From the NCBI RefSeq assembly GCF_038025025.1, contig NW_027117338.1, forward strand, positions 434,001 through 498,000: a stretch of 64,000 nt of DNA, in the 5' to 3' direction. The notes under the pieces are model-generated. The model saw only the letters and a list, made by a program, of their open reading frames with translations. It was not told where the DNA came from and did no database searches. This DNA is from Phyllosticta citribraziliensis (Eukaryota). Numbering within the stretch: position 1 is the first letter of the stretch; the number at the start of each line of letters is the position of its first letter. The position numbers and the translations under genes were made by a program. Positions 27,613 through 43,717 of the stretch are shown here, piece after piece.

Positions 27613-30130
27613 ATGTCAGATCCCTCCTCGTCCCACCAGGTCTCGGGAAAGAGTGATAGGACCACCCGCAACAACAAAACATCAACGGCTGTGTCCACCC
27701 GCTCACGCCGAACAGCCAGCCCATCTCAATCGAAACAGGACGATGGTCCGCTGACACCAGAATCCCCACCCTTTCGCTTGACACGAAAGCGTGCTGCCTC
27801 GCTCGTCGACAGGACAGAAGAGATGGACATGCAGGAAACTGAGGCGGCACCTGTGCCCGGCACACACTCTCGCATCAACTCTGCTAGCTCTTTGGTGTCG
27901 TCTGATGGCTCGACTGCGAACCACGTTTGCCTATGTCAGCCCGACCCCAAGATTCCGCGACCGAGGAACGGTGAGTGATGGCTCTTTATCTTTCTGCTTG
28001 TCTTTTGAGCAAATATAGCTCGCTCCATCCCTTTGTTCTGGCGACGCCCTGGCGTGGAGTCACCCTTTGTTGTTCTTGTTGTTTCGACGGACGCTGACCA
28101 GTGGTTTCTTTGTAGCATTCATACTTTATCGGCAGCATCACCACGCTACCATCGTCGCAGAGAATCCAGGACTCGCAAATCCCGACATATCCAAAATCAT
28201 TGGCGAGCAGTGGAGATCGGAATCAGAGTCCATCAGAGAAGAGTGGAAGAGATTGGCAGACGAAGAAAAGCTCCGCCACCAGCAGCAGTACCCCGAATAT
28301 CGTTACCAACCCCGTCGTGGCGGCCGTCGTTCGAGCGTGTCCAACGCCAGTGGTACAGCTGAGAAACACCCTTGCACCAAGTGCGGTGGACGGAGCATTA
28401 CGACGCCTACGACGCCTTTTGGTACAGCCCCAGGGAACGCTCCGACACCTATGCTTCCTCCGCCAACACCTTCTTCGGCCTTGACCCCCACATCGCGCTA
28501 CCTTCCACCGATGATGAGCAACTTAGCCATCAATGCCAACGGACAGCCTCGTCGCATCCGACACACACCTGCTGCCATAAGCATTGGTCGAATCCCCGAA
28601 GACCGCGATGTTCAAATGCTCAGCCCCCTGTCCCCTGATGCAAAGCGGCGCCGCTACAACTCGGGGTATGTGCCTCAATCGGCGCGTCCAGGCCCAGGGA
28701 CGCCATACCCTTTTCCCCCAGACCCAAGGCGACAGTCTCTGCCAGCTGTTCGTCCAGAGGTGCTGCGTGGGCCGTCTCCTCGATCCTCGGCCTCGCCCGC
28801 CGTCCACCACGTCCAGCAACACCACCACCACCCAGACAGCAACCTCACGCTGCCTCCGCTGCAAACCACGGCGAACAACAGCCCGCGGCCAGGCACGACG
28901 GCCGCACCAGCCACGGCGCACCCGAATGGCGTCATGGCCATGGCGGACCCGCGCAGCGTCGAAGCTATGGTCATGAGTATGCCGTTCTGGGGGAAGCTCC
29001 GCATCCTGGGCAAGATCTCGCCACCGTACGGGACGCACGTGGGAGGAGGCGGTTCTCCAACATCGTCGTCTCCGCGCGGTGCCATCATCGCCGTCGAGGG
29101 CGACGACCGCGCCGTCGTGCAGCAAATGGCCGAGTGGCTGCGCGACAACCTCAACAAGGGCGGCGAGCTGGACGCGCGCGTGGCAGAGCCACCGCGTGGA
29201 CCGCCCGAACGCAGCGATAATGGTAGCAGCGATGCCGCCGATGTCAGTCTGGGCGCGTACATTGGCCTCGTGGCTGAGTGGCATGCGAAGAATGCCGAGA
29301 TGGTCGACTTCATCACGGGGCATCAGTCGGCGGCCAACAAGCAGCAGCACCACCACCACCACCACGACGCTGGCAGTGAAATCGACAGCGGCACGTCGCG
29401 CAGCAACTCTCTCGCGGCGTCGCCGGCGTCGGCGTCTGTCTCGTCGCCGACCGACTCGGCCATGGAAGACGCGCCTCAATCGCAGTCCAACACGACTAAA
29501 CAGCTGACGGCGCACAAACCCGGCAAACCGCCCTCTTCTTCCCAGCCCAACAACACCAACATCGCTACCACCACTGCCGCCGCCACTGGTGCTGCGACAG
29601 GCAGTAAGTGCAACGGCCGCACACCCATCCTCATCCTCCCCAGCTTCACCCTCTCGGCCGCCAACGCCTGGGCCGCCCGCATCCCCATCGCCGACGCCTA
29701 CTCGCCCGCCGACCACTGGCAGTGGCTCGCCACGCTGTGGCGCGGCATCGTCGGACCGGACGTCACCGTGTACGTCGCCGACGCGCCCGCCTCGTCGTCG
29801 CCTTCCGCTTCCACTTCCGCAGGAGGTGCCGCTTTCGCTGGCGCGGGCATGCAGACCCCTGGCCTCCCCCCGCCGTCCGGCATGGGGTTCGGCGCTGCTG
29901 CTGCTGCTGCGGCGGCGGCGGCGGCGGCGGCGAGACCGGTTGAGGTGCGTGAGGAGGGCGTCACGCGGTGCGTCGTCGTGAGGAGGGAGCGGCGGGCGAG
30001 CGCTGTCAGCGTCGGGAGTGCGGCGAGCGGTGCTGGTGGCGGCGGCGCGGGAATGGGCATCGACGAGAGCGCGCTCAGGCGGCTGGGGTTCGAGGTTGAG
30101 GAGCTGGTTAGGTGTAGCGTTGGTAGGTAG
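27613..30130 (+). CDS. HMG-box transcription factor (Rox1-like), intron ~27971-28115
   Basis: 'KIPRPRNAFILYRQHHHA...NPDISKIIGEQWR...YPEYRYQPRR', plus the C-terminal 'PIADAYSPADHWQWLATLWRGIVGPDVTVYV' region that I recall from Pezizomycotina homologs. Confidence 0.9.
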
Positions 30131-37463: not shown

Positions 37464-38795
37464 ATGGCTAACAACGTCCTCATCACCGGCGCCTCGGGTT
37501 ACCTTGGCGGATCCTTCCTCGCCGCGTGGGCCCAGTCCAACGTCCAAAACTATCAGACCTTGTACGCGCTAGTCCGATCCGACGACCAAGCCGACAAGGT
37601 CAAGACACTGTACGGCGCCGAGCCCGTCCGCAGCGAGATCACGGAGGAAAGCATCCGCAAGTTGGTTCTGGAAAAGCAAATCAACGTCGTCTTTTACCTG
37701 ATCGACGCGTACTTCGCCAAACGCCAAGTCGCGTTCATCAAGGCCCTCGAGGAGCTCAAGAAGACTACGGGACAGGAGGTGCACTTCGTTCATGTGATTT
37801 GTGTCGTCGGAGGATATGCTGTTCATTTGGGCGCTTTTCTGACTTCTCGGACAATGCTCGACAGACGTCTGGAGCCAAGATGGTTTCTGATATGGCCGGC
37901 GTGAAGATGGACGGGCCTCTGTACGATAACCGTGACGACATCTATGAGATCCATAAAAGCCAGAAGCCTAAGCACTGGGAGCTTGAAGAGGTAAGTGCTC
38001 ATCTGCATCGTTCATCAAGGGATGTGGATAACATGGACACAGGCTGTTCGAACCAACTGCACCGTTGTCGACGCCGGAGAGAAACACAACATCAGAACCT
38101 ACCTCTTCTTTCCCTGCATCGTCTACGGCAAGGGCGCGGGTTTCGGCAACGTCATTTCCATCCAGACGGTCGACACTGTGATTGCCGCACAGGGCGCAGG
38201 CGGAGTATACAGGCCCGGTCGCCCTGGAAAGGTACGTACGCCAAAGCTCTTCCGACTAACTATCTATGCTCTTGGGAAATCTCTCTTTTCTGTTCTGACC
38301 ACGGCAACAGACTTGGCCTGTTTGCCACATCGAGGACAACACGTCGTTGTACATCTCTCTCGCCAAGGCCATCCTCAACGGCTCGAATCCCGACTGCGGA
38401 AAGCACGGCGTCTACCTCGCGTCCTCGGGCTCTGTCGGCTGGGACGACATTTATTCGGCGATGGCCAAAGCGCTGGCAAAGCGTGGTGTCATCAAGGATG
38501 CCACGGTCAAGTACGCCACGGACGATGCGCTACAGGCCATGGCGAACGCGCTCAATGTTCAAAAGCCGTCTGTTGCCGTCAAGATTGGTGGACAGTAAGC
38601 AGTTCCCCCTATCTCCTGAGATGTTGTTGATGCACTCTGGCTAACGAGAAATGTAGATGCAACTTTACTGCCGTCCATGGAAAGGATTTGGGGTGGCAGC
38701 CTAAATATGCCCCCGCTCACATTCTTGAGGCGCTTGATGATGAGGTTGCGCTCATTCTTGAGAACTTGTCTAAGAAGCACAGGGGTATCAGGTAG
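37464..38795 (+). CDS. NAD(P)-binding Rossmann-fold (epimerase/dehydratase-like extended SDR) protein, 5 exons
   Basis: 'VLITGASGYLGG', 'TSGAK', 'PCIVYGKGAGFGNVISIQ', 'WPVCHIEDN', 'LGWQPKY'. Introns are canonical. Confidence 0.82.
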
Positions 38796-39236
38796 TGCTC
38801 TCGCTTGTCGGGACTGTGTCTGTGGTACAGTGACTTGGGCTGGGAGTCGGGGAATCTACTTCAGTGCCGCAGTGGGTGTTGAAGAAATGGTACTTACTAG
38901 GTCCAGCTCCAGTAGCGAAAAAAGGTCCCCGAGTATGCTATGGCAGCGAACGACAGTTTTCTGGCTGTTTCTGTAGCAGTAAGTGAATACCTGTTGGACG
39001 CAACCGCGGTGTTAGAAAGGACCAGTGATTTGAAAGTGCAATACCTCTAAGCTGTCAACATGCAGCCTATAGAGAAAAAGTAGTAACGCTTGGCCCAAGC
39101 AGCACAAGTCAAGGAGTACACCTCTCTCTTCACATACCGCACGCCCACCATTCCCCTGCGACCTTTTAAAACGACAAACTCCTCCAAACAACGCAACAAG
39201 AATGGAGAAATCCGCCCTCGCCTCGTTCCCTCCCGT

Positions 39237-39860
39237 TCACATCGCACTCTCCTGTATAAGCACCGGATTCAGATTGCCAGCCGTCGGCGCCAGCCCATCA
39301 AACCGCGCAAACCGAAACATAGTCGCCCGCATGTGCGGATCATACGGCACCCAAACATTGACCTCGTGGGCCTCAAGCGTCGGCGTCTCGACGTCGACGG
39401 CGGGACCGCCGTCGCCCGACGGGCGCCAGAAGCGCATGTTGACCTCGAGAACGTCGAATGCGCGCAGCGGCTGCATCGTGGCCATGCTGAACGGCGGCTG
39501 GACCTGGGTGGGGCGGTCGGCGTCGCCGGGTTGCTGATCCAGCGCGCGGAAGAGGCGGATCACCGGCGGCAGCTGCGAGCAGATGACGGTGAAGCGCTGG
39601 CGCGGCGGCTCCCGCGCGTCCGCGGGGTTGGCAGGCGGATGGTAGGGGACGCGGTAGGAGGGGGCATTGCGCTGGTGGAGGCGCAGGGTGAGGAGGCTGA
39701 TTAAGTGATTTGGGCCGCCGTGGACGTGCGGCGTTGCTAAGATGTTGTGTTGGACGTCGCCTCGGTAGCTGGTGATGAAGCTACCGTGCTCAAATTCGTT
39801 CATGGATTGGTACGATATGCGCGGCAATGCTGACTCGTAGATGACTGTAAATGCTGCCAT
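39237..39860 (-). CDS. Orphan protein, paralog A (207 aa, intronless)
   Basis: ATG-initiated ORF with GC3 bias. Shares IR[LV]FRA, E[LV]xxx[FY]W and L[AR]PTA motifs with the two neighbouring ORFs. Confidence 0.7.
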   Translation of the reverse strand: MAAFTVIYESALPRISYQSMNEFEHGSFITSYRGDVQHNILATPHVHGGPNHLISLLTLRLHQRNAPSYRVPYHPPANPADAREPPRQRFTVICSQLPPVIRLFRALDQQPGDADRPTQVQPPFSMATMQPLRAFDVLEVNMRFWRPSGDGGPAVDVETPTLEAHEVNVWVPYDPHMRATMFRFARFDGLAPTAGNLNPVLIQESAM

Positions 39861-39951
39861 GGCTATTATGGCGGCCGTGATGGCGGTGGTTGGCTGGTGA
39901 GTGGCTGCGATGTGGCATCCCGGGCCATATATATCTCAAAGCTCGGGATTT

Positions 39952-40600
39952 CTTTGTCTTGCTATTTCTTCAAAGGTCGTGGGAAATGGTGGCGTAGCGA
40001 TGAAAGGACTTTGTTTATCAGGAGAGCCTCCCCTACTGTCCAGTCGCTCGGGACAAAGTGGCAGACACTTTGCTCGGATGCGGACTACTCGCCGTAGGCG
40101 CCAAATCATCCCAGCGATGAAAGGTGAATTCAGTCGGCAGTATAGACTCATCGAAGGGCACAAAAAGATTCATCTCCCACCAATCCTCCGTCAGCACCTC
40201 GACCCCGTTGCGCCAGTAGTGCATGCGTAACTCGACAATGTCGTAGCCGCGCTGTACGCGCGACGGAATGTATGGGCCAGACACTATGGGGATTTGCCAG
40301 TTGATCATCTTCGGCGTGGTCGAGTCGCCGTAGTGCTTCTCCAGCGCGCGGAAGACGCGGATCGTGCGCGAGCACTGGGACGTGGCGTCGTACCAGCGCT
40401 CGCGCACGCCGGCGCAGATTGTGGGATACTGATCGTTGGTGCCATTGGAGATTTGGTGCTGGTGGTGGTTAGCGGGCGAGTAGCTGCGGGTGTGGTATAT
40501 ATACATTGATGCTGTAAATTGCTTTATCTTGCTGATTTCTCAAAGGCCATTGGCAATGGTGGCGTTGCGATAAAAGGGCTTTGCGTATATGGAGAGCGTC
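39952..40600. repeat. Two direct copies of a 79-bp block (39952-40030 and 40522-40600) upstream of paralogs A and B
   Basis: Manual ungapped alignment gives 62/79 identical bases; the copies are 570 bp apart. Confidence 0.85.
40033..40506 (-). CDS. Orphan protein, paralog B (157 aa, N-terminally shorter)
   Basis: 'TIRVFRALE', 'YDIVELRMHYWR', 'EMNLFVPFD', 'DDLAPTA' are collinear with paralog A. Confidence 0.65.
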   Translation of the reverse strand: MYIYHTRSYSPANHHQHQISNGTNDQYPTICAGVRERWYDATSQCSRTIRVFRALEKHYGDSTTPKMINWQIPIVSGPYIPSRVQRGYDIVELRMHYWRNGVEVLTEDWWEMNLFVPFDESILPTEFTFHRWDDLAPTASSPHPSKVSATLSRATGQ

Positions 40601-40780
40601 TTTGTTGAATCTCCGTCCGAGGAACCGCATCCCCCGATGGCCGCTTCGGGACCAGACGGACAAAGGTGATGATTGATTGGGGACGACTCGAATAAATACC
40701 GTGAGATGAGACTGGTTCAATGTCATTCTATGCTTTCAACCCAACCCACGATCCACCACCGTCCTCTGCAGAAGCCCAAA

Positions 40781-41305
40781 ATGCCCACAGTTGCGTATGC
40801 GTATGATGGGACGGAGAACGGCTTCTTCGGCTGCTGGACAACACGCTATAACGTCGACGTCAACCTACAGGAGTCGTTCATCAACGACCCAACCATCAAC
40901 GGGCCGGACGCCGGCCAACGCGAATGCATCATCGGAATGACGCTCAACGACTGGGCCGCCATTGGCTACCCCCGAAACCGACACACAAGGGAGCCGCGGC
41001 TGGAGAGGTACAGATGTGTGTACGCAGAGCGCCCGTCGACGATCCGATTGTTTCGCGCGAACCGCGCCTGGAATCCTAGGATGCGGGTGCCGCAGCGAAT
41101 TTCGACCAACCTGCTGGAGGTGCCCTTGTGGGCGCTGCAGCAGTGCGAGATAACGGAGCTGAACATTACCTATTGGGATGGTGGATATAGGCCGTTGCCG
41201 CCGAGTCCGATGACAGCAGAGCTGTTTTTCCCAAATGTGCCAGGCAAGCGGACTGAGATTTGGTTTTATTATGACCTGGACCTAAGGCCAACGGCGGAGA
41301 TTTAG
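40781..41305 (+). CDS. Orphan protein, paralog C (174 aa, intronless, inverted relative to A and B)
   Basis: AAAATG start; 'REPRLERY', 'TIRLFRA', 'ITELNITYW', 'DLRPTA'. Confidence 0.7.
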   Translation: MPTVAYAYDGTENGFFGCWTTRYNVDVNLQESFINDPTINGPDAGQRECIIGMTLNDWAAIGYPRNRHTREPRLERYRCVYAERPSTIRLFRANRAWNPRMRVPQRISTNLLEVPLWALQQCEITELNITYWDGGYRPLPPSPMTAELFFPNVPGKRTEIWFYYDLDLRPTAEI

Positions 41306-41498
41306 AGCGATCGGAACTTTGAGGTTCTCTGCGCAAGGAGATGGGGTTTTGTCGATTCTTTGTTCCTTCCTTTCTTTTCTTTCTTTTTCATGAGAATTGG
41401 AAGGGTTGCTAAAAGAAAGGTCTGAATGGGAAGTGCTTTCAATCTTTTCGTCTCTATGACTATGCACCAAAAACTCCAGAGAATGGCAAGAGTCCGAA

Positions 41499-43717
41499 TC
41501 ACAGCTCAACGAAATCACCCAACAAATACTTGCCCTCTCTCTTATCACTCAAATACTTGACAACCTTCTCCGTCATAGCCGTCGTCTCAAAGCCAAACCA
41601 CTTGTATGCCGCCTTGCCCGGCAAGCTCTTGCCAAATGTCTTGACGCAAAACGCAGCATCGGCGTAGCGCTCCCAGCCTTGCGGCGCGTACGGCTCAATG
41701 ACCACTGACGGGATACCTTGGTGGCGCTTGAGCGTGTCGCGGTTGTAGGAAATGTCTTGTCTTTCGAAGAGGCGCTGGCACGGGAAACTGACGACGCGCG
41801 TGCGGATGCCGCGCTCGCGCAGAGCGGCAGCCACGTCGACGGCGAAGCTGAGTTCAGCGCCTACGCCAACGAGCGTGACGTCGGCGTCTTCGACCTCCTC
41901 GATGACGTAGGCTCCCTTCGCGACGCCGTCGCGGCGCGTCTTGGGCGCCAGTTGCGGCAACGTGTGGCGCGAGGTCGAGATGATTGTGGGAGTATTTTTG
42001 GCCTCGATGGCGGCGATCCAGGCGCCGGCCGTCTCTTCGCTGTCGGCGGGACGGATGTAGAGGAGGTTGGGCATGGCGCGGTAGAGGGCGGCCAGCTCGA
42101 TGGGCTGGTGCGTGGGTCCGTCTTCGCCCATGCCGATGCTGTCGTGCGTTGCGGCGTGGATGATTTGGAGGTGCTGCAGCGCACCCATGCGCACGGCTGG
42201 CGCTGCGTATAGGTAGAAGATAAAGAAGGAACTGGTGACGGGGATGATCGTGTTGGGGGCAAATGCTGCCAGTCCATTGCTTACGGCCGCCATTACGTGC
42301 TCTCTTACACCGTAGTGAACGTAGCGTCCACGATATGTCCCGTTGATGCCGCATGTCGTCTTGCGGTCTGGATGCTGAAAGTCTTCCTTGCCTTTCCAAA
42401 TCATGTTGACGGACGGCGACAGATCTGCCGTGCCAACCATGAAGTTGCTGATTGCTTGCGCAATTGGGTTGAAGACGAGACCCGAAGACGCCCGCGTAGC
42501 CGTCAGCTTGTTAGGAAACTCCTTCGGAATGAGGTCTTTCCAGTGTGCCGGCAATTCGCCCCTGACGCGGGCCTTGAATTCAGCTGCGAGCTCTGGGTGA
42601 GCCTGGCTGTACTTTTCAACCAGCTCGTTCCACCCTTGCACAAGCTTTTCGCCACGCAATGGGCACTCGGCGAAGAACTGCTTGACCTGGTCGGTAATTA
42701 CAAAGTGCTCATCTCGGTTGAAGCCGTAGGCTGCCTTCATTTTGGCAATGTCGTCTTTGCCCAGCGCAGCTCCGTGTGCAACTGCAGTGCCAGCCACCGC
42801 ACTTCCGACTCCAATGACCGTTCTGACGTTGATGAATGTGGGATTTTCGGTTGAAGTTTTCGACTTGTTCAGGGCATTTACAAGGCCCTCCACGTCGAAG
42901 CAGCCGTCCTCAATATCTATCACGTCCCAGCCGCATGCCGTCATTTTTGCGTTGACATCCTCGCTGTTGGTCAGGTCCACTGAGCCATCGCAGGTAATTT
43001 GGTTGTTGTCGTAGATGACGGTCAGGTTGTTGAGTTTGAGGTGACCAGCGAGAGAAATGGCTTCCAGGCCAACACCCTCCTGCAAGCACGCGTCTCCAAT
43101 CATGCACCACGTGTGGTTGTCAACGACATCGTAGCCGGGCCGGTTGTATGTTGCGCCCAAGTGCTTTGACGCGATAGCCAGACCGACGGCATTGGCGATA
43201 CCCTGGCCAAGCGGGCCCGTCGTAACTTCGATTCCTTCGTGCTCAATCTCAGGGTGCCCGGGGGCAAACGAATCTTTGCGGGACGAGTGGTAGCTCTTGA
43301 GCTGGTCCAGAGTCATGGCCTTGTATCCGGTAAGATGCAGGAAGCTGTATTGGAACAAACATGTGTGTCCTAAAACAGGCATTAGATATCTGTCTTGGAC
43401 TAGAGTCATTTCCACCCACCGTTTGAAAGCACAAATCTATCGCGGTTGAAATAGTCGGGCGTGTGCGGCGCGTAGCGCATGGCGTATTTCCACAGCGCAA
43501 TGCCAATCGCGGCCATGCCAATGGCACCTCCAGGGTGTCCGCCGTTGAACTGCTGACACAGGTCCGCGATCAATAACCGAAAGGCCTTGAGGACGTGGTC
43601 ATGCTCGGGCGACAGCTTTGCGACAGCATTCTTTTCCACTTTGGCTTCTTCCAGGACGCGATCGACCAGAGTCTCTCCGTATGCCGTGTGGCCGTTCGTT
43701 GCGACGCCTGGAGCCAT
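41499..43717 (-). CDS. Transketolase / dihydroxyacetone synthase-like ThDP enzyme, intron ~43371-43420
   Basis: 'GGHPGGAIG', 'NRDRFVLSNGH', 'TTGPLGQG', ThDP motif 'GDACLQEG...YDNN', 'YGVREH', 'THDSIGMGEDGPTHQP'. Confidence 0.93.

Follow-up and report, generated by a model that had tools for sequence, protein, structure and literature searches.

Three adjacent, intronless open reading frames in the genome of Phyllosticta citribraziliensis, a fungus of the order Botryosphaeriales, raise two questions: (i) do they belong to a single protein family that has so far gone unrecognised and (ii) are all three still genes. We addressed both in a window of 64,000 nucleotides, the whole stretch of DNA that was analysed (positions 434,001 to 498,000 of contig NW_027117338.1; coordinates below count from its first letter). 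ORF A (39237–39860, minus strand) and ORF C (40781–41305, plus strand) are intact single-exon coding sequences of 207 aa (P0001) and 174 aa (P0003), respectively, and ORF B (40033–40506, minus strand) is a frame of 157 codons (P0002). In what follows, A emerges as a fast-evolving member of an A/B type, C as a conserved member of a C type and B as the probable residual frame of a broken member. All three frames are found where the first-pass annotation had placed them, on the same strands, and the neighbours fit its description: one Rossmann gene is NmrA-like, and a transketolase and a Zn-alcohol dehydrogenase are also present. A chance ORF of 205 codons also runs antisense to A at 39087–39704.

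The first question arose from an alignment made by eye. By BLASTP, the pairwise similarity of the three proteins is far beyond chance: A and B share 33% identity over 123 aa (E = 1e-18), A and C share 22% over 176 aa, N-terminal blocks included (E = 3e-9), and B and C match with E = 2e-4. The peptide blocks originally picked out are present in the three translations and align in register. Full-length membership was defined by N-terminal G-G-W/NGP blocks together with C-terminal IRxFRA, YW and (W/F)(V/I)P blocks. The family HMM matches A over profile positions 3–178 (E = 6.6e-58) and C over positions 2–176 (E = 8.2e-65), so that both belong to the Phyllosticta family across the whole profile. 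B is a partial member, because the HMM matches it only at positions 57–177 (E = 5.5e-34); its lack of the N-terminal blocks common to A and C, already suspected, is evident both in the alignment and in the HMM match. When all six frames of the window were searched with the HMM, neither further copies nor a displaced remnant of the B N-domain came up. Copy number beyond the window was taken from database proteins only; a fourth paralog, D (P0008), shares a 3.4-Mb contig with A.

The base composition of the frames bears on whether they encode proteins at all. GC content by codon position in A is 0.66/0.46/0.79, and A and C have GC3 of 0.72–0.79 and GC2 of 0.46–0.47, a pattern like that of the neighbouring genes. 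Were A, B and C frames that GC-rich DNA opens by chance, or remnants in decay that gene prediction carries along, this signature in A and C would not be expected, nor would paralogs be likely to retain collinear motifs in six species at only 22–45% identity without selection on the protein. The frames of A, C and D are, moreover, kept between sister species at 80–97% identity with no more than one in-frame gap, and AlphaFold2, given 13 sequences, returns a confident model. The explanation without protein-coding genes can draw on the local occurrence of chance frames of about 200 codons, such as the one antisense to A, on the status of the database members, all of which are unreviewed "hypothetical proteins", and on RNA evidence that is weak for all three ORFs. 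We regard it as hardly tenable.

That RNA evidence consists of contigs from sequencing runs. Contigs of run X1 match at 100% identity at 39085–39567 and 39832–40290, covering parts of A and the 3′ half of B, and another X1 contig lies at the 5′ end of C (40734–40884); a contig of X7 matches 39703–39921, also at 100% identity. None of the runs behind these contigs is catalogued as RNA; X1 is taken to contain RNA solely on the ground that its transketolase contig lacks a 50-nt intron. Contig depth over A, B and C is 4–8, versus 135 for the transketolase, in contigs that carry no strand or end information. These low-depth contigs are a weak sign of transcription of A, B and C, for which DNA carry-over is a possible source. 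Cover from X1 is absent from 40338–40554 (the 5′ part of B) and from the NmrA-like gene, and gaps of this kind carry no weight.

How widely is the family distributed? A profile hmmsearch of 1,835,955,588 representative proteins returned eight matches at E ≤ 1e-3, half of them (4 of 8) the query members themselves. The seven clusters (90%) around the profile matches hold 20 members, and the 15 that are named all come from Phyllosticta. Six species carry the family: P. citricarpa, P. paracitricarpa, P. citriasiana, P. capitalensis, P. citribraziliensis and P. citrichinensis. Word-indexed database searches added no relatives from outside the genus. The restriction to Phyllosticta holds at the sensitivity of HMMER and for the genomes present in the databases. 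A scan of metagenome contigs with protein C gave 53 pattern matches, none of which was confirmed by tblastn, and ESM Atlas look-alikes of C and D provided no usable match.

Domain collections were equally unrevealing. Pfam assigned no family to A, B or C at E ≤ 1, and at E ≤ 10 its matches to 13 members were inconsistent, with one family appearing in two members (E = 0.24) and a second, unrelated family in one of the 13 (E = 0.082). The HET domain had no Pfam match in the members tested, which have 157–207 aa and a single predicted domain. NCBIfam had no match for five members, and an hmmsearch of 177,635 distinct PDB sequences with the 13-sequence profile reached a best E of 0.96. The suggestion of an unrecognised family without a known domain therefore stands, with no Pfam, NCBIfam or PDB-sequence match, no significant fold match and all named members in Phyllosticta, and we conclude that the family is real and undescribed. 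We think it likely that A, B and C are a small, genus-restricted orphan family shaped by local duplication, divergence and decay, in which C is old, the tandem duplicates A and B are younger and B is probably a pseudogene.

The histories of the copies can be read from their counterparts in P. citrichinensis and from the family tree. A is 80% identical to P0004 over 205 aa with a single 1-codon gap, and C is 97% identical to P0022 over 175 aa; copy by copy, the identities between these same two species are 97%, 91%, 85% and 80%. As judged from these comparisons, A is intact and evolves fast, and C is highly conserved. The P0022 model carries a 20-aa N-terminal extension that is out of frame in the window DNA, and the start of C is for this reason placed at the Met at 40781. 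In the tree, A and B form a clade with support of 100/100. C groups with 182–190-aa proteins of the P. citricarpa clade (84/87) and is by this grouping an older paralog; the proposed inverted duplication is not supported as a recent event, C being no recent inverted copy of either A or B. D joins the N-terminal half of a fused P. citriasiana model (83/88); in sister-species annotations, 54–67 protein accession numbers separate it from B or C. In the P. citricarpa clade, the copies make up a tandem pair of their own.

The tandem duplication postulated for A and B is borne out, and it extends beyond the coding sequences. The upstream region of A (promoter and 5′UTR, 39861–40030, minus strand) is duplicated upstream of B: a direct repeat of 104 nt, D1, relates 39927–40030 to 40497–40600 at 74% identity. 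In a MAFFT alignment, the TATA-like motifs (ATATATAT at 39927–39934 for A and TATATATA at 40496–40503 for B) and the ATGGCA start codons of the two copies are in register, and the motif, judged by its position and conservation only, would be a working TATA box. The intergenic region between the divergent genes B and C (40507–40780) measures 274 nt, and its first part (40507–40600) lies within the duplicated promoter block. A and B form the younger, tandem pair, duplicated together with its promoter. The sister species P. citrichinensis has the pair as well, and its divergence from the other family members is strong.

The second question turns on B. Its conserved part (40033–40407, minus strand) comprises 124 codons homologous to the C-terminal half of the family, and matches the full-length P. 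citrichinensis protein P0005 (201 aa, N-domain included) at 85% identity over 124 aa, corresponding to residues 78–201. The ancestral start codon of B can be located at 40443–40445, where an ATGGCA aligns with the start of A; the conserved part is no longer read in its frame. Translation from 40445 yields 46 out-of-frame codons followed by a stop, and the resulting peptide starts out similar to P0005, sharing M, A, T, I, Q, S and A with it within the first 11 residues. The ATG and the Val codon at 40407 are 38 nt apart in B, against 231 nt in P0005; by coordinate arithmetic, a net 193 nt is missing between the ancestral start and the conserved C-terminal half. This number is not a multiple of 3, and the ancestral ATG is out of frame because the sequence for the N-terminal half, 193 nt net, has been lost. 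Selection had been credited with keeping all of the frames open. The frames of A and C do stay open across species, at 80% and 97% identity; for B the idea fails, given its 193-nt net loss.

Two further changes distinguish B. The column of A Pro98, invariant in the family alignment that omits B, is Ser in B. A quasi-palindrome, I1 (40363–40408), with 20-nt arms that are 90% complementary and a 6-nt loop, lies where B carries a micro-inversion when compared with its P. citrichinensis counterpart: by tblastn, a 15-mer read from the plus strand is identical to P0005 residues 78–92 at 12 of 15 positions, versus 9 of 15 for the coding minus strand. The terminal branch leading to B is 0.34, versus 0.018 for its ortholog, or ∼19 times longer. 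In the genome of P. citribraziliensis, B is thus probably a pseudogene. Its decay would have involved (i) a net 193-nt frameshifting deletion that removed the N-terminal half, (ii) loss of the invariant proline and (iii) a hairpin-centred micro-inversion that rewrote a conserved strand. A contig of run X3, from a related organism, aligns from 38654 and stops at 40410 with 56 letters of its own left over. It ends where the deletion in B is inferred to have its junction, as might be expected if B were intact there; we do not rely on this agreement. Three joints in another X3 contig (38795>39377, 39400>40342 and 39908>40555) have sides of only 24–28 letters, within repeated DNA.

It could be argued that all three copies function, with B a shortened isoform consisting of the C-terminal domain only, whose translation would begin with the ATG at 40506 or with the more distant upstream ATG of the NCBI model. 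B does keep an ORF of 157 codons that an in-frame ATG opens, the NCBI annotation gives it a product of 183 aa (P0021), its C-terminal part still resembles its ortholog at 85% identity and the RNA-run contig at 39832–40290 includes its 3′ half. The start of the frame speaks differently, however. The ATG at 40504–40506 (minus strand) abuts the duplicated TATATATA, which is read as codons 2–4 of ORF B (ORF start, 40496–40506), and codons 1–33 are DNA homologous to the promoter and 5′UTR of A. The first exon of P0021 falls in the same promoter-homologous block, inside the B–C intergenic region, and matches non-coding DNA upstream of A; the NCBI model looks like a prediction artefact that rescues a broken gene. 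A half protein would also be unlikely to fold alone, because the N-terminal strands belong to the same confidently predicted domain (pTM 0.78). Taken with the lost proline, the rewritten strand and the long terminal branch, these observations make a functional short isoform distinctly unlikely, and we continue to treat B as a probable pseudogene, from which a truncated product may still be made.

What kind of protein do the intact copies encode? AlphaFold2, run on a shallow alignment of 13 sequences, gives an all-beta model for C (pLDDT 82.1, pTM 0.78) and a model for A with pLDDT 68.6 and pTM 0.71. The models have 9–11 long strands in a single domain and only short helices, in agreement with the beta-rich fold anticipated from hydrophobic patterns. 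Family proteins are 160–210 aa in size, with an aromatic content (W+Y+F) of 8.7–13.2%. The expected absence of transmembrane segments and signal peptides is upheld by hydropathy: across 13 members, the 19-residue Kyte-Doolittle mean does not exceed 1.11, and the first 20 residues average from −1.19 to 0.51, with no hydrophobic N-terminus. Foldseek searches of the PDB gave best E values of 2.0 and 2.5 with TM ≤ 0.18; Ostreolysin A (6myi_B) appeared at E = 5.0 and TM 0.10, and the only recurring structural neighbour was the designed beta-sheet homodimer HALC2_062 (PDB 8d04).

Fungal cytoplasmic lectins are in general small, beta-rich and aromatic-rich proteins without signal peptides, encoded by locally duplicated and patchily distributed genes, and the family resembles them in these respects. 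It may accordingly be asked whether its proteins belong to an already known superfamily, beta-sandwich or lectin-like, from which they have diverged beyond recognition; aegerolysin-like proteins and the cytoplasmic defence lectins of fungi would be examples. In that case the missing matches would reflect model error or the limits of the searches. Indeed, a missing fold match is not proof of a new fold. Pfam lends this no support at E ≤ 10 over 13 members, though, and neither the best PDB profile match (E = 0.96) nor the Foldseek results come close, and we consider such a relationship unlikely. It is possible, if doubtful, that the fold arose within Phyllosticta, either de novo or by extreme divergence, as an open, long-stranded beta-sheet module for intracellular binding used in biotic interaction or defence. 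This reading of the models would add, just as tentatively, that the fold has no counterpart among solved structures and that C is a conserved founder, A a duplicate that diverges fast and is possibly neofunctionalised, and B a dying copy.

The conserved residues provide some guidance on function. Across 13 members, eight columns are invariant (Gly, Gly, Val, three Pro and the two Arg of the IRxFRA strand), and none of them is His, Asp, Ser or Cys. A binding or scaffold role is favored over an enzymatic one because no invariant His, Asp, Ser or Cys is available, as a catalytic site would need, although an argument from 13 sequences could miss a catalytic set that is conserved in some subfamilies only. 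Members of the C/D type do share a Cys-Glu pair and a His, which A and B lack, as well as a further Glu. Together with the metabolic character of the flanking NmrA-like, transketolase and Zn-alcohol dehydrogenase genes, this could suggest small enzymes, such as hydrolases or transferases acting on a metabolite. Even among C/D-type members, however, the His, Cys and Glu are not universal, no enzyme family or fold was matched, and the gene neighbourhood is not conserved, as seen from the distance between D and B or C and from the separate tandem pair of the P. citricarpa clade. We find an enzymatic role very unlikely. Our best guess from these sequence features is a soluble protein of the cytosol that binds or scaffolds and has no enzymatic activity; Trp, Tyr and Arg, of which many are conserved, could form part of a surface for a ligand. 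A role in biotic interaction or defence is plausible because the family is dispensable and varies in copy number.

Family turnover is visible at this locus. A promoter and its gene were duplicated together, the rates of the copies then split sharply, and one copy, B, would have been lost to a deletion that shifted the frame and a micro-inversion centred on a hairpin. Should the predicted structure be true, the family offers a compact all-beta domain, modelled with confidence, for which no relative could be detected by sequence or structure, in one fungal genus, and would be a tractable case for studying the origin of new folds and families and for structural genomics. The genus includes citrus pathogens and endophytes described in the literature.

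Genus-restricted families of this kind are common in fungi. Unannotated ones number in the thousands in Phyllosticta genomes, and A, B and C are one well-documented example and not a surprise. In the passages of PMC9073689 that bear on this, 2,734 (72.6%) of the orthogroups unique to Phyllosticta hold 2–3 genes, and 288 unique secreted orthogroups are without annotation; the corresponding passages of PMC6965161 give 262–1,991 orphan genes per Phyllosticta species. By the lifestyles that abstracts in the literature assign, the family is present in both endophyte-labelled and pathogen-labelled species. The passages of the two papers contain no mention of the family, its tandem layout, its predicted fold or its broken copy, and their supplementary tables may list the genes. 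The orphan orthogroups described in those passages resemble the A/B/C family in being found only in Phyllosticta and in having no functional annotation; they differ in being reported as counts, with an emphasis on secreted and effector candidates, whereas ours is an account of one family.

Comparison with two known classes of protein is also instructive. Conventional small secreted effectors and the family are alike in being small, lineage-specific, unannotated and fast-evolving (80% identity for A). Unlike such effectors, the family proteins have, by the hydropathy check, no hydrophobic N-terminus and no transmembrane segment, and they contain 0–4 cysteines, none of them invariant. Cytoplasmic defence lectins and aegerolysins differ from the family in showing no sequence or fold match to it, Ostreolysin A being found only at E = 5.0, yet they share with it small size, a beta-rich structure, the absence of a signal peptide, a patchy distribution and local duplication.

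The first-pass annotation had reported three mutually similar ORFs, and these are present as described: A (39237–39860, minus strand, 207 aa), B (40033–40506, minus strand, 157 aa) and C (40781–41305, plus strand, 174 aa). In pairwise protein comparisons, A and B match with E = 1e-18 (33% identity over 123 aa), A and C with E = 3e-9 (22% over 176 aa) and B and C with E = 2e-4; the A–C alignment takes in the N-terminal blocks that had been noted as common to those two proteins. A family HMM run against every stop-to-stop frame in the 64 kb of the window matches all three (C, E = 8e-65; A, 7e-58; B, 5e-34) and no fourth copy, the next match having E = 0.35. The trio is flanked by genes for an NmrA-like Rossmann protein, a transketolase and a Zn-alcohol dehydrogenase.

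Opposite A, on the plus strand, is an open frame of 205 codons (39087–39704). Many further antisense ORFs of at least 180 codons occur in this window of 55–64% GC, so ORF length alone is no evidence of a gene here. Elsewhere, a long open frame at 28019–30130 (plus strand) contains an HMG-box domain (Pfam E = 1.2e-19); a frame of 726 codons that matches nothing in Pfam overlaps it on the opposite strand.

The family appears to be confined to one genus. An exhaustive profile hmmsearch of 1,835,955,588 representative proteins with a cut-off of E ≤ 1e-3 returned eight proteins, four of them already in the query alignment and four new. Between them, the seven clusters concerned (90% identity) comprise 20 sequences; a source name is attached to 15, and all 15 are Phyllosticta proteins described as hypothetical or uncharacterized. 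Six species are represented (P. citricarpa, P. paracitricarpa, P. citriasiana, P. capitalensis, P. citribraziliensis and P. citrichinensis). Word-indexed protein searches likewise matched Phyllosticta only, and a scan of metagenome contigs with protein C found no relatives. Local clustering is typical: a fourth P. citribraziliensis paralog, D (P0008), shares a 3.4-Mb contig with A and has an accession 54 numbers from that of B, the D and C orthologs of P. citrichinensis are 67 accession numbers apart and the two P. capitalensis paralogs are two numbers apart. In P. citriasiana, the 356-aa protein P0011 consists of two tandem family members fused in one model, so that the P. citricarpa clade also has the family in tandem. 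The D-type copy in P0011 is truncated at about residue 150 and reads through into the upstream region of the C-type copy; one of the two copies may, like B (see below), be damaged.

Searches for known domains and folds bear out the proposal that the family was unrecognised. There was no Pfam match to A, B or C at E ≤ 1, no consistent match to 13 members at E ≤ 10 and no NCBIfam match to five members; the best PDB sequence profile match had E = 0.96, and the ESM Atlas gave no usable match for C or D. AlphaFold2 models built from a 13-sequence alignment are moderate for A (pLDDT 68.6, pTM 0.71) and confident for C (pLDDT 82.1, pTM 0.78; mean pLDDT of at least 72 in four of five models). Both consist of 9–11 mostly long β-strands with only short helices, in agreement with the β-rich fold that had been anticipated. 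Foldseek found no structural neighbor in the PDB for either model (best E = 2.0 for A and 2.5 for C), and the best match of the A model in BFVD had E = 0.62. We conclude that the family is genuine, that it is undescribed and that it has no detectable relatives, so that by its distance from known families it counts as new. As far as the accessible text of PMC9073689 and PMC6965161 goes, Phyllosticta-unique or orphan genes are treated there only as bulk counts, with emphasis on secreted candidates; no description of this family was found in the accessible genome, transcriptome and orphan-gene literature on the genus, where supplementary tables may list the genes by identifier. Unannotated genus-restricted families are plentiful in fungi.

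Several observations argue for A and C being real proteins. Their ORFs stay open from one species to another, with no more than a single in-frame gap, the paralog motifs are collinear at 22–45% identity, the codon-position GC order (GC3 > GC1 > GC2) is that of neighboring genes and the AlphaFold2 model of C is confident. The 20-aa N-terminal extension of P0022, the P. citrichinensis ortholog of C, is matched at 40720–40779 (17 of 20 residues identical) in a frame other than that of the CDS, so this segment is 5′UTR and the true start of C is the Met at 40781.

The history of the family was examined in a maximum-likelihood tree (IQ-TREE, 14 rows, among them the P. citriasiana fusion cut by index into two halves, and a trimmed P0022). 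A and B form a clade with 100/100 support on a long branch, restricted to P. citribraziliensis and P. citrichinensis. C groups with 182–190-aa proteins of P. citricarpa, P. paracitricarpa and P. citriasiana (84/87); D, with 83/88 support, groups with the N-terminal fusion half. Both P. capitalensis proteins have long, unresolved branches, and long-branch joins may mislead. The upstream DNA of A and B is homologous (a 104-nt direct repeat, 74% identical), with TATA-like motifs (A, 39927–39934; B, 40496–40503; minus strand) and ATGGCA start codons (A, 39860; B, 40445; minus strand) in register, indicating that the tandem duplication took in the promoter. Thus, of the tandem plus inverted duplication originally envisaged, the tandem part stands for A and B, but the grouping of C makes it an old paralog and no recent inverted copy. 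Identity between P. citribraziliensis and P. citrichinensis is 97% for C, 91% for D and 80% for A, and 85% for B over the C-terminal half only. Several C/D-type conserved motifs (G-G-W, N-G-P and C-E) are replaced in A and B, as might follow from either weaker constraint or a new function.

The suggestion that selection had kept all three frames open fails for B. The ancestral ATG of B is in a different frame from the conserved C-terminal half and opens 46 codons before a stop, the first 11 still resembling the N-terminus of P0005, the full-length P. citrichinensis ortholog (201 aa, N-terminal domain present). The distance from ATG to a conserved Val codon is 38 nt in B versus 231 nt in P0005, a net loss of 193 nt, or 64 codons plus 1 nt. 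The listed ORF is open only because no stop happens to fall within the 33 codons before the junction, and its ATG (40504–40506) adjoins the TATA-like TATATATA motif, read as codons 2–4. The NCBI model P0021 (P. citribraziliensis, 183 aa), whose C-terminal 141 residues are identical to the B ORF, places its first exon within 40506–40630, a block homologous to non-coding DNA upstream of A, and assigns the TATATATA motif to an intron of 46 nt; it is probably a prediction artefact from rescue of a broken gene. B also has Ser opposite the A Pro98 column, which is invariant in the 13-sequence alignment omitting B. A quasi-palindrome at 40363–40408 (20-nt arms, 90% complementary, 6-nt loop) contains a 15-mer matching P0005 at 12 of 15 positions on the non-coding strand versus 9 of 15 on the coding strand, a pattern indicative of a hairpin-centered micro-inversion in one lineage that left the frame open. 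The terminal branch of B is 0.34 versus 0.018 for its ortholog, whereas other pairs are near-symmetric (A, 0.12/0.13; C, 0/0.029; D, 0.034/0.059). The Ser substitution, micro-inversion and long branch are signs of decay. B may still give a truncated product, but the better reading is that it is a pseudogene. A 1,816-nt contig from X3, a sequencing run from a related organism, aligns over A and B (38654–40410; 137 differences, 15 gaps) and stops at the inferred deletion junction with 56 letters unaligned, as would fit an intact B in its source.

A second run, X1, contains RNA, since the 50-nt GT..AG intron at 43369–43418 is spliced out of its 2.7-kb transketolase contig. Contigs from this run, 100% identical, cover 39085–39567 (the 3′ part of A and 152 nt downstream), 39832–40290 (the A start, intergenic DNA and the 3′ half of B) and 40734–40884 (the 5′ end of C) at a depth of 4–8 versus 135 for transketolase, with no contig joints inside A, B or C. 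This fits intronless, weakly transcribed genes, in contigs that carry no strand, end or level information and may include DNA carry-over. The transketolase contig (depth 135) runs 356 nt past the transketolase stop (41143–41499), enters the 3′ end of convergent C by 163 nt and terminates in adapter sequence at 41143; this reflects a tail-to-tail overlap of the two mRNAs or else their merger during assembly.

Hydropathy shows no hydrophobic N-terminus or transmembrane segment in the family proteins, as the first-pass annotation had held, and inspection by eye revealed no obvious targeting signal. The pI is mostly 5.7–7.1 (9.1–9.8 in citricarpa-clade rows) and W+Y+F content is 8.7–13.2%. Eight columns are invariant among 13 members: two Gly, one Val, three Pro and two Arg. 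Both Arg lie in the IRxFRA strand, and none of the eight is a typical catalytic residue. The aromatic content and the lack of such a residue, membrane segment or signal suggest soluble proteins that work inside the cell in binding or as scaffolds and are not enzymes, a reading to which we would give about an even chance. Cytoplasmic fungal lectins function in defence and biotic interaction. Not one search match supports a likeness between these lectins and the Phyllosticta family; a comparable role for the family proteins is the one we would favour, though as a considerably longer shot.
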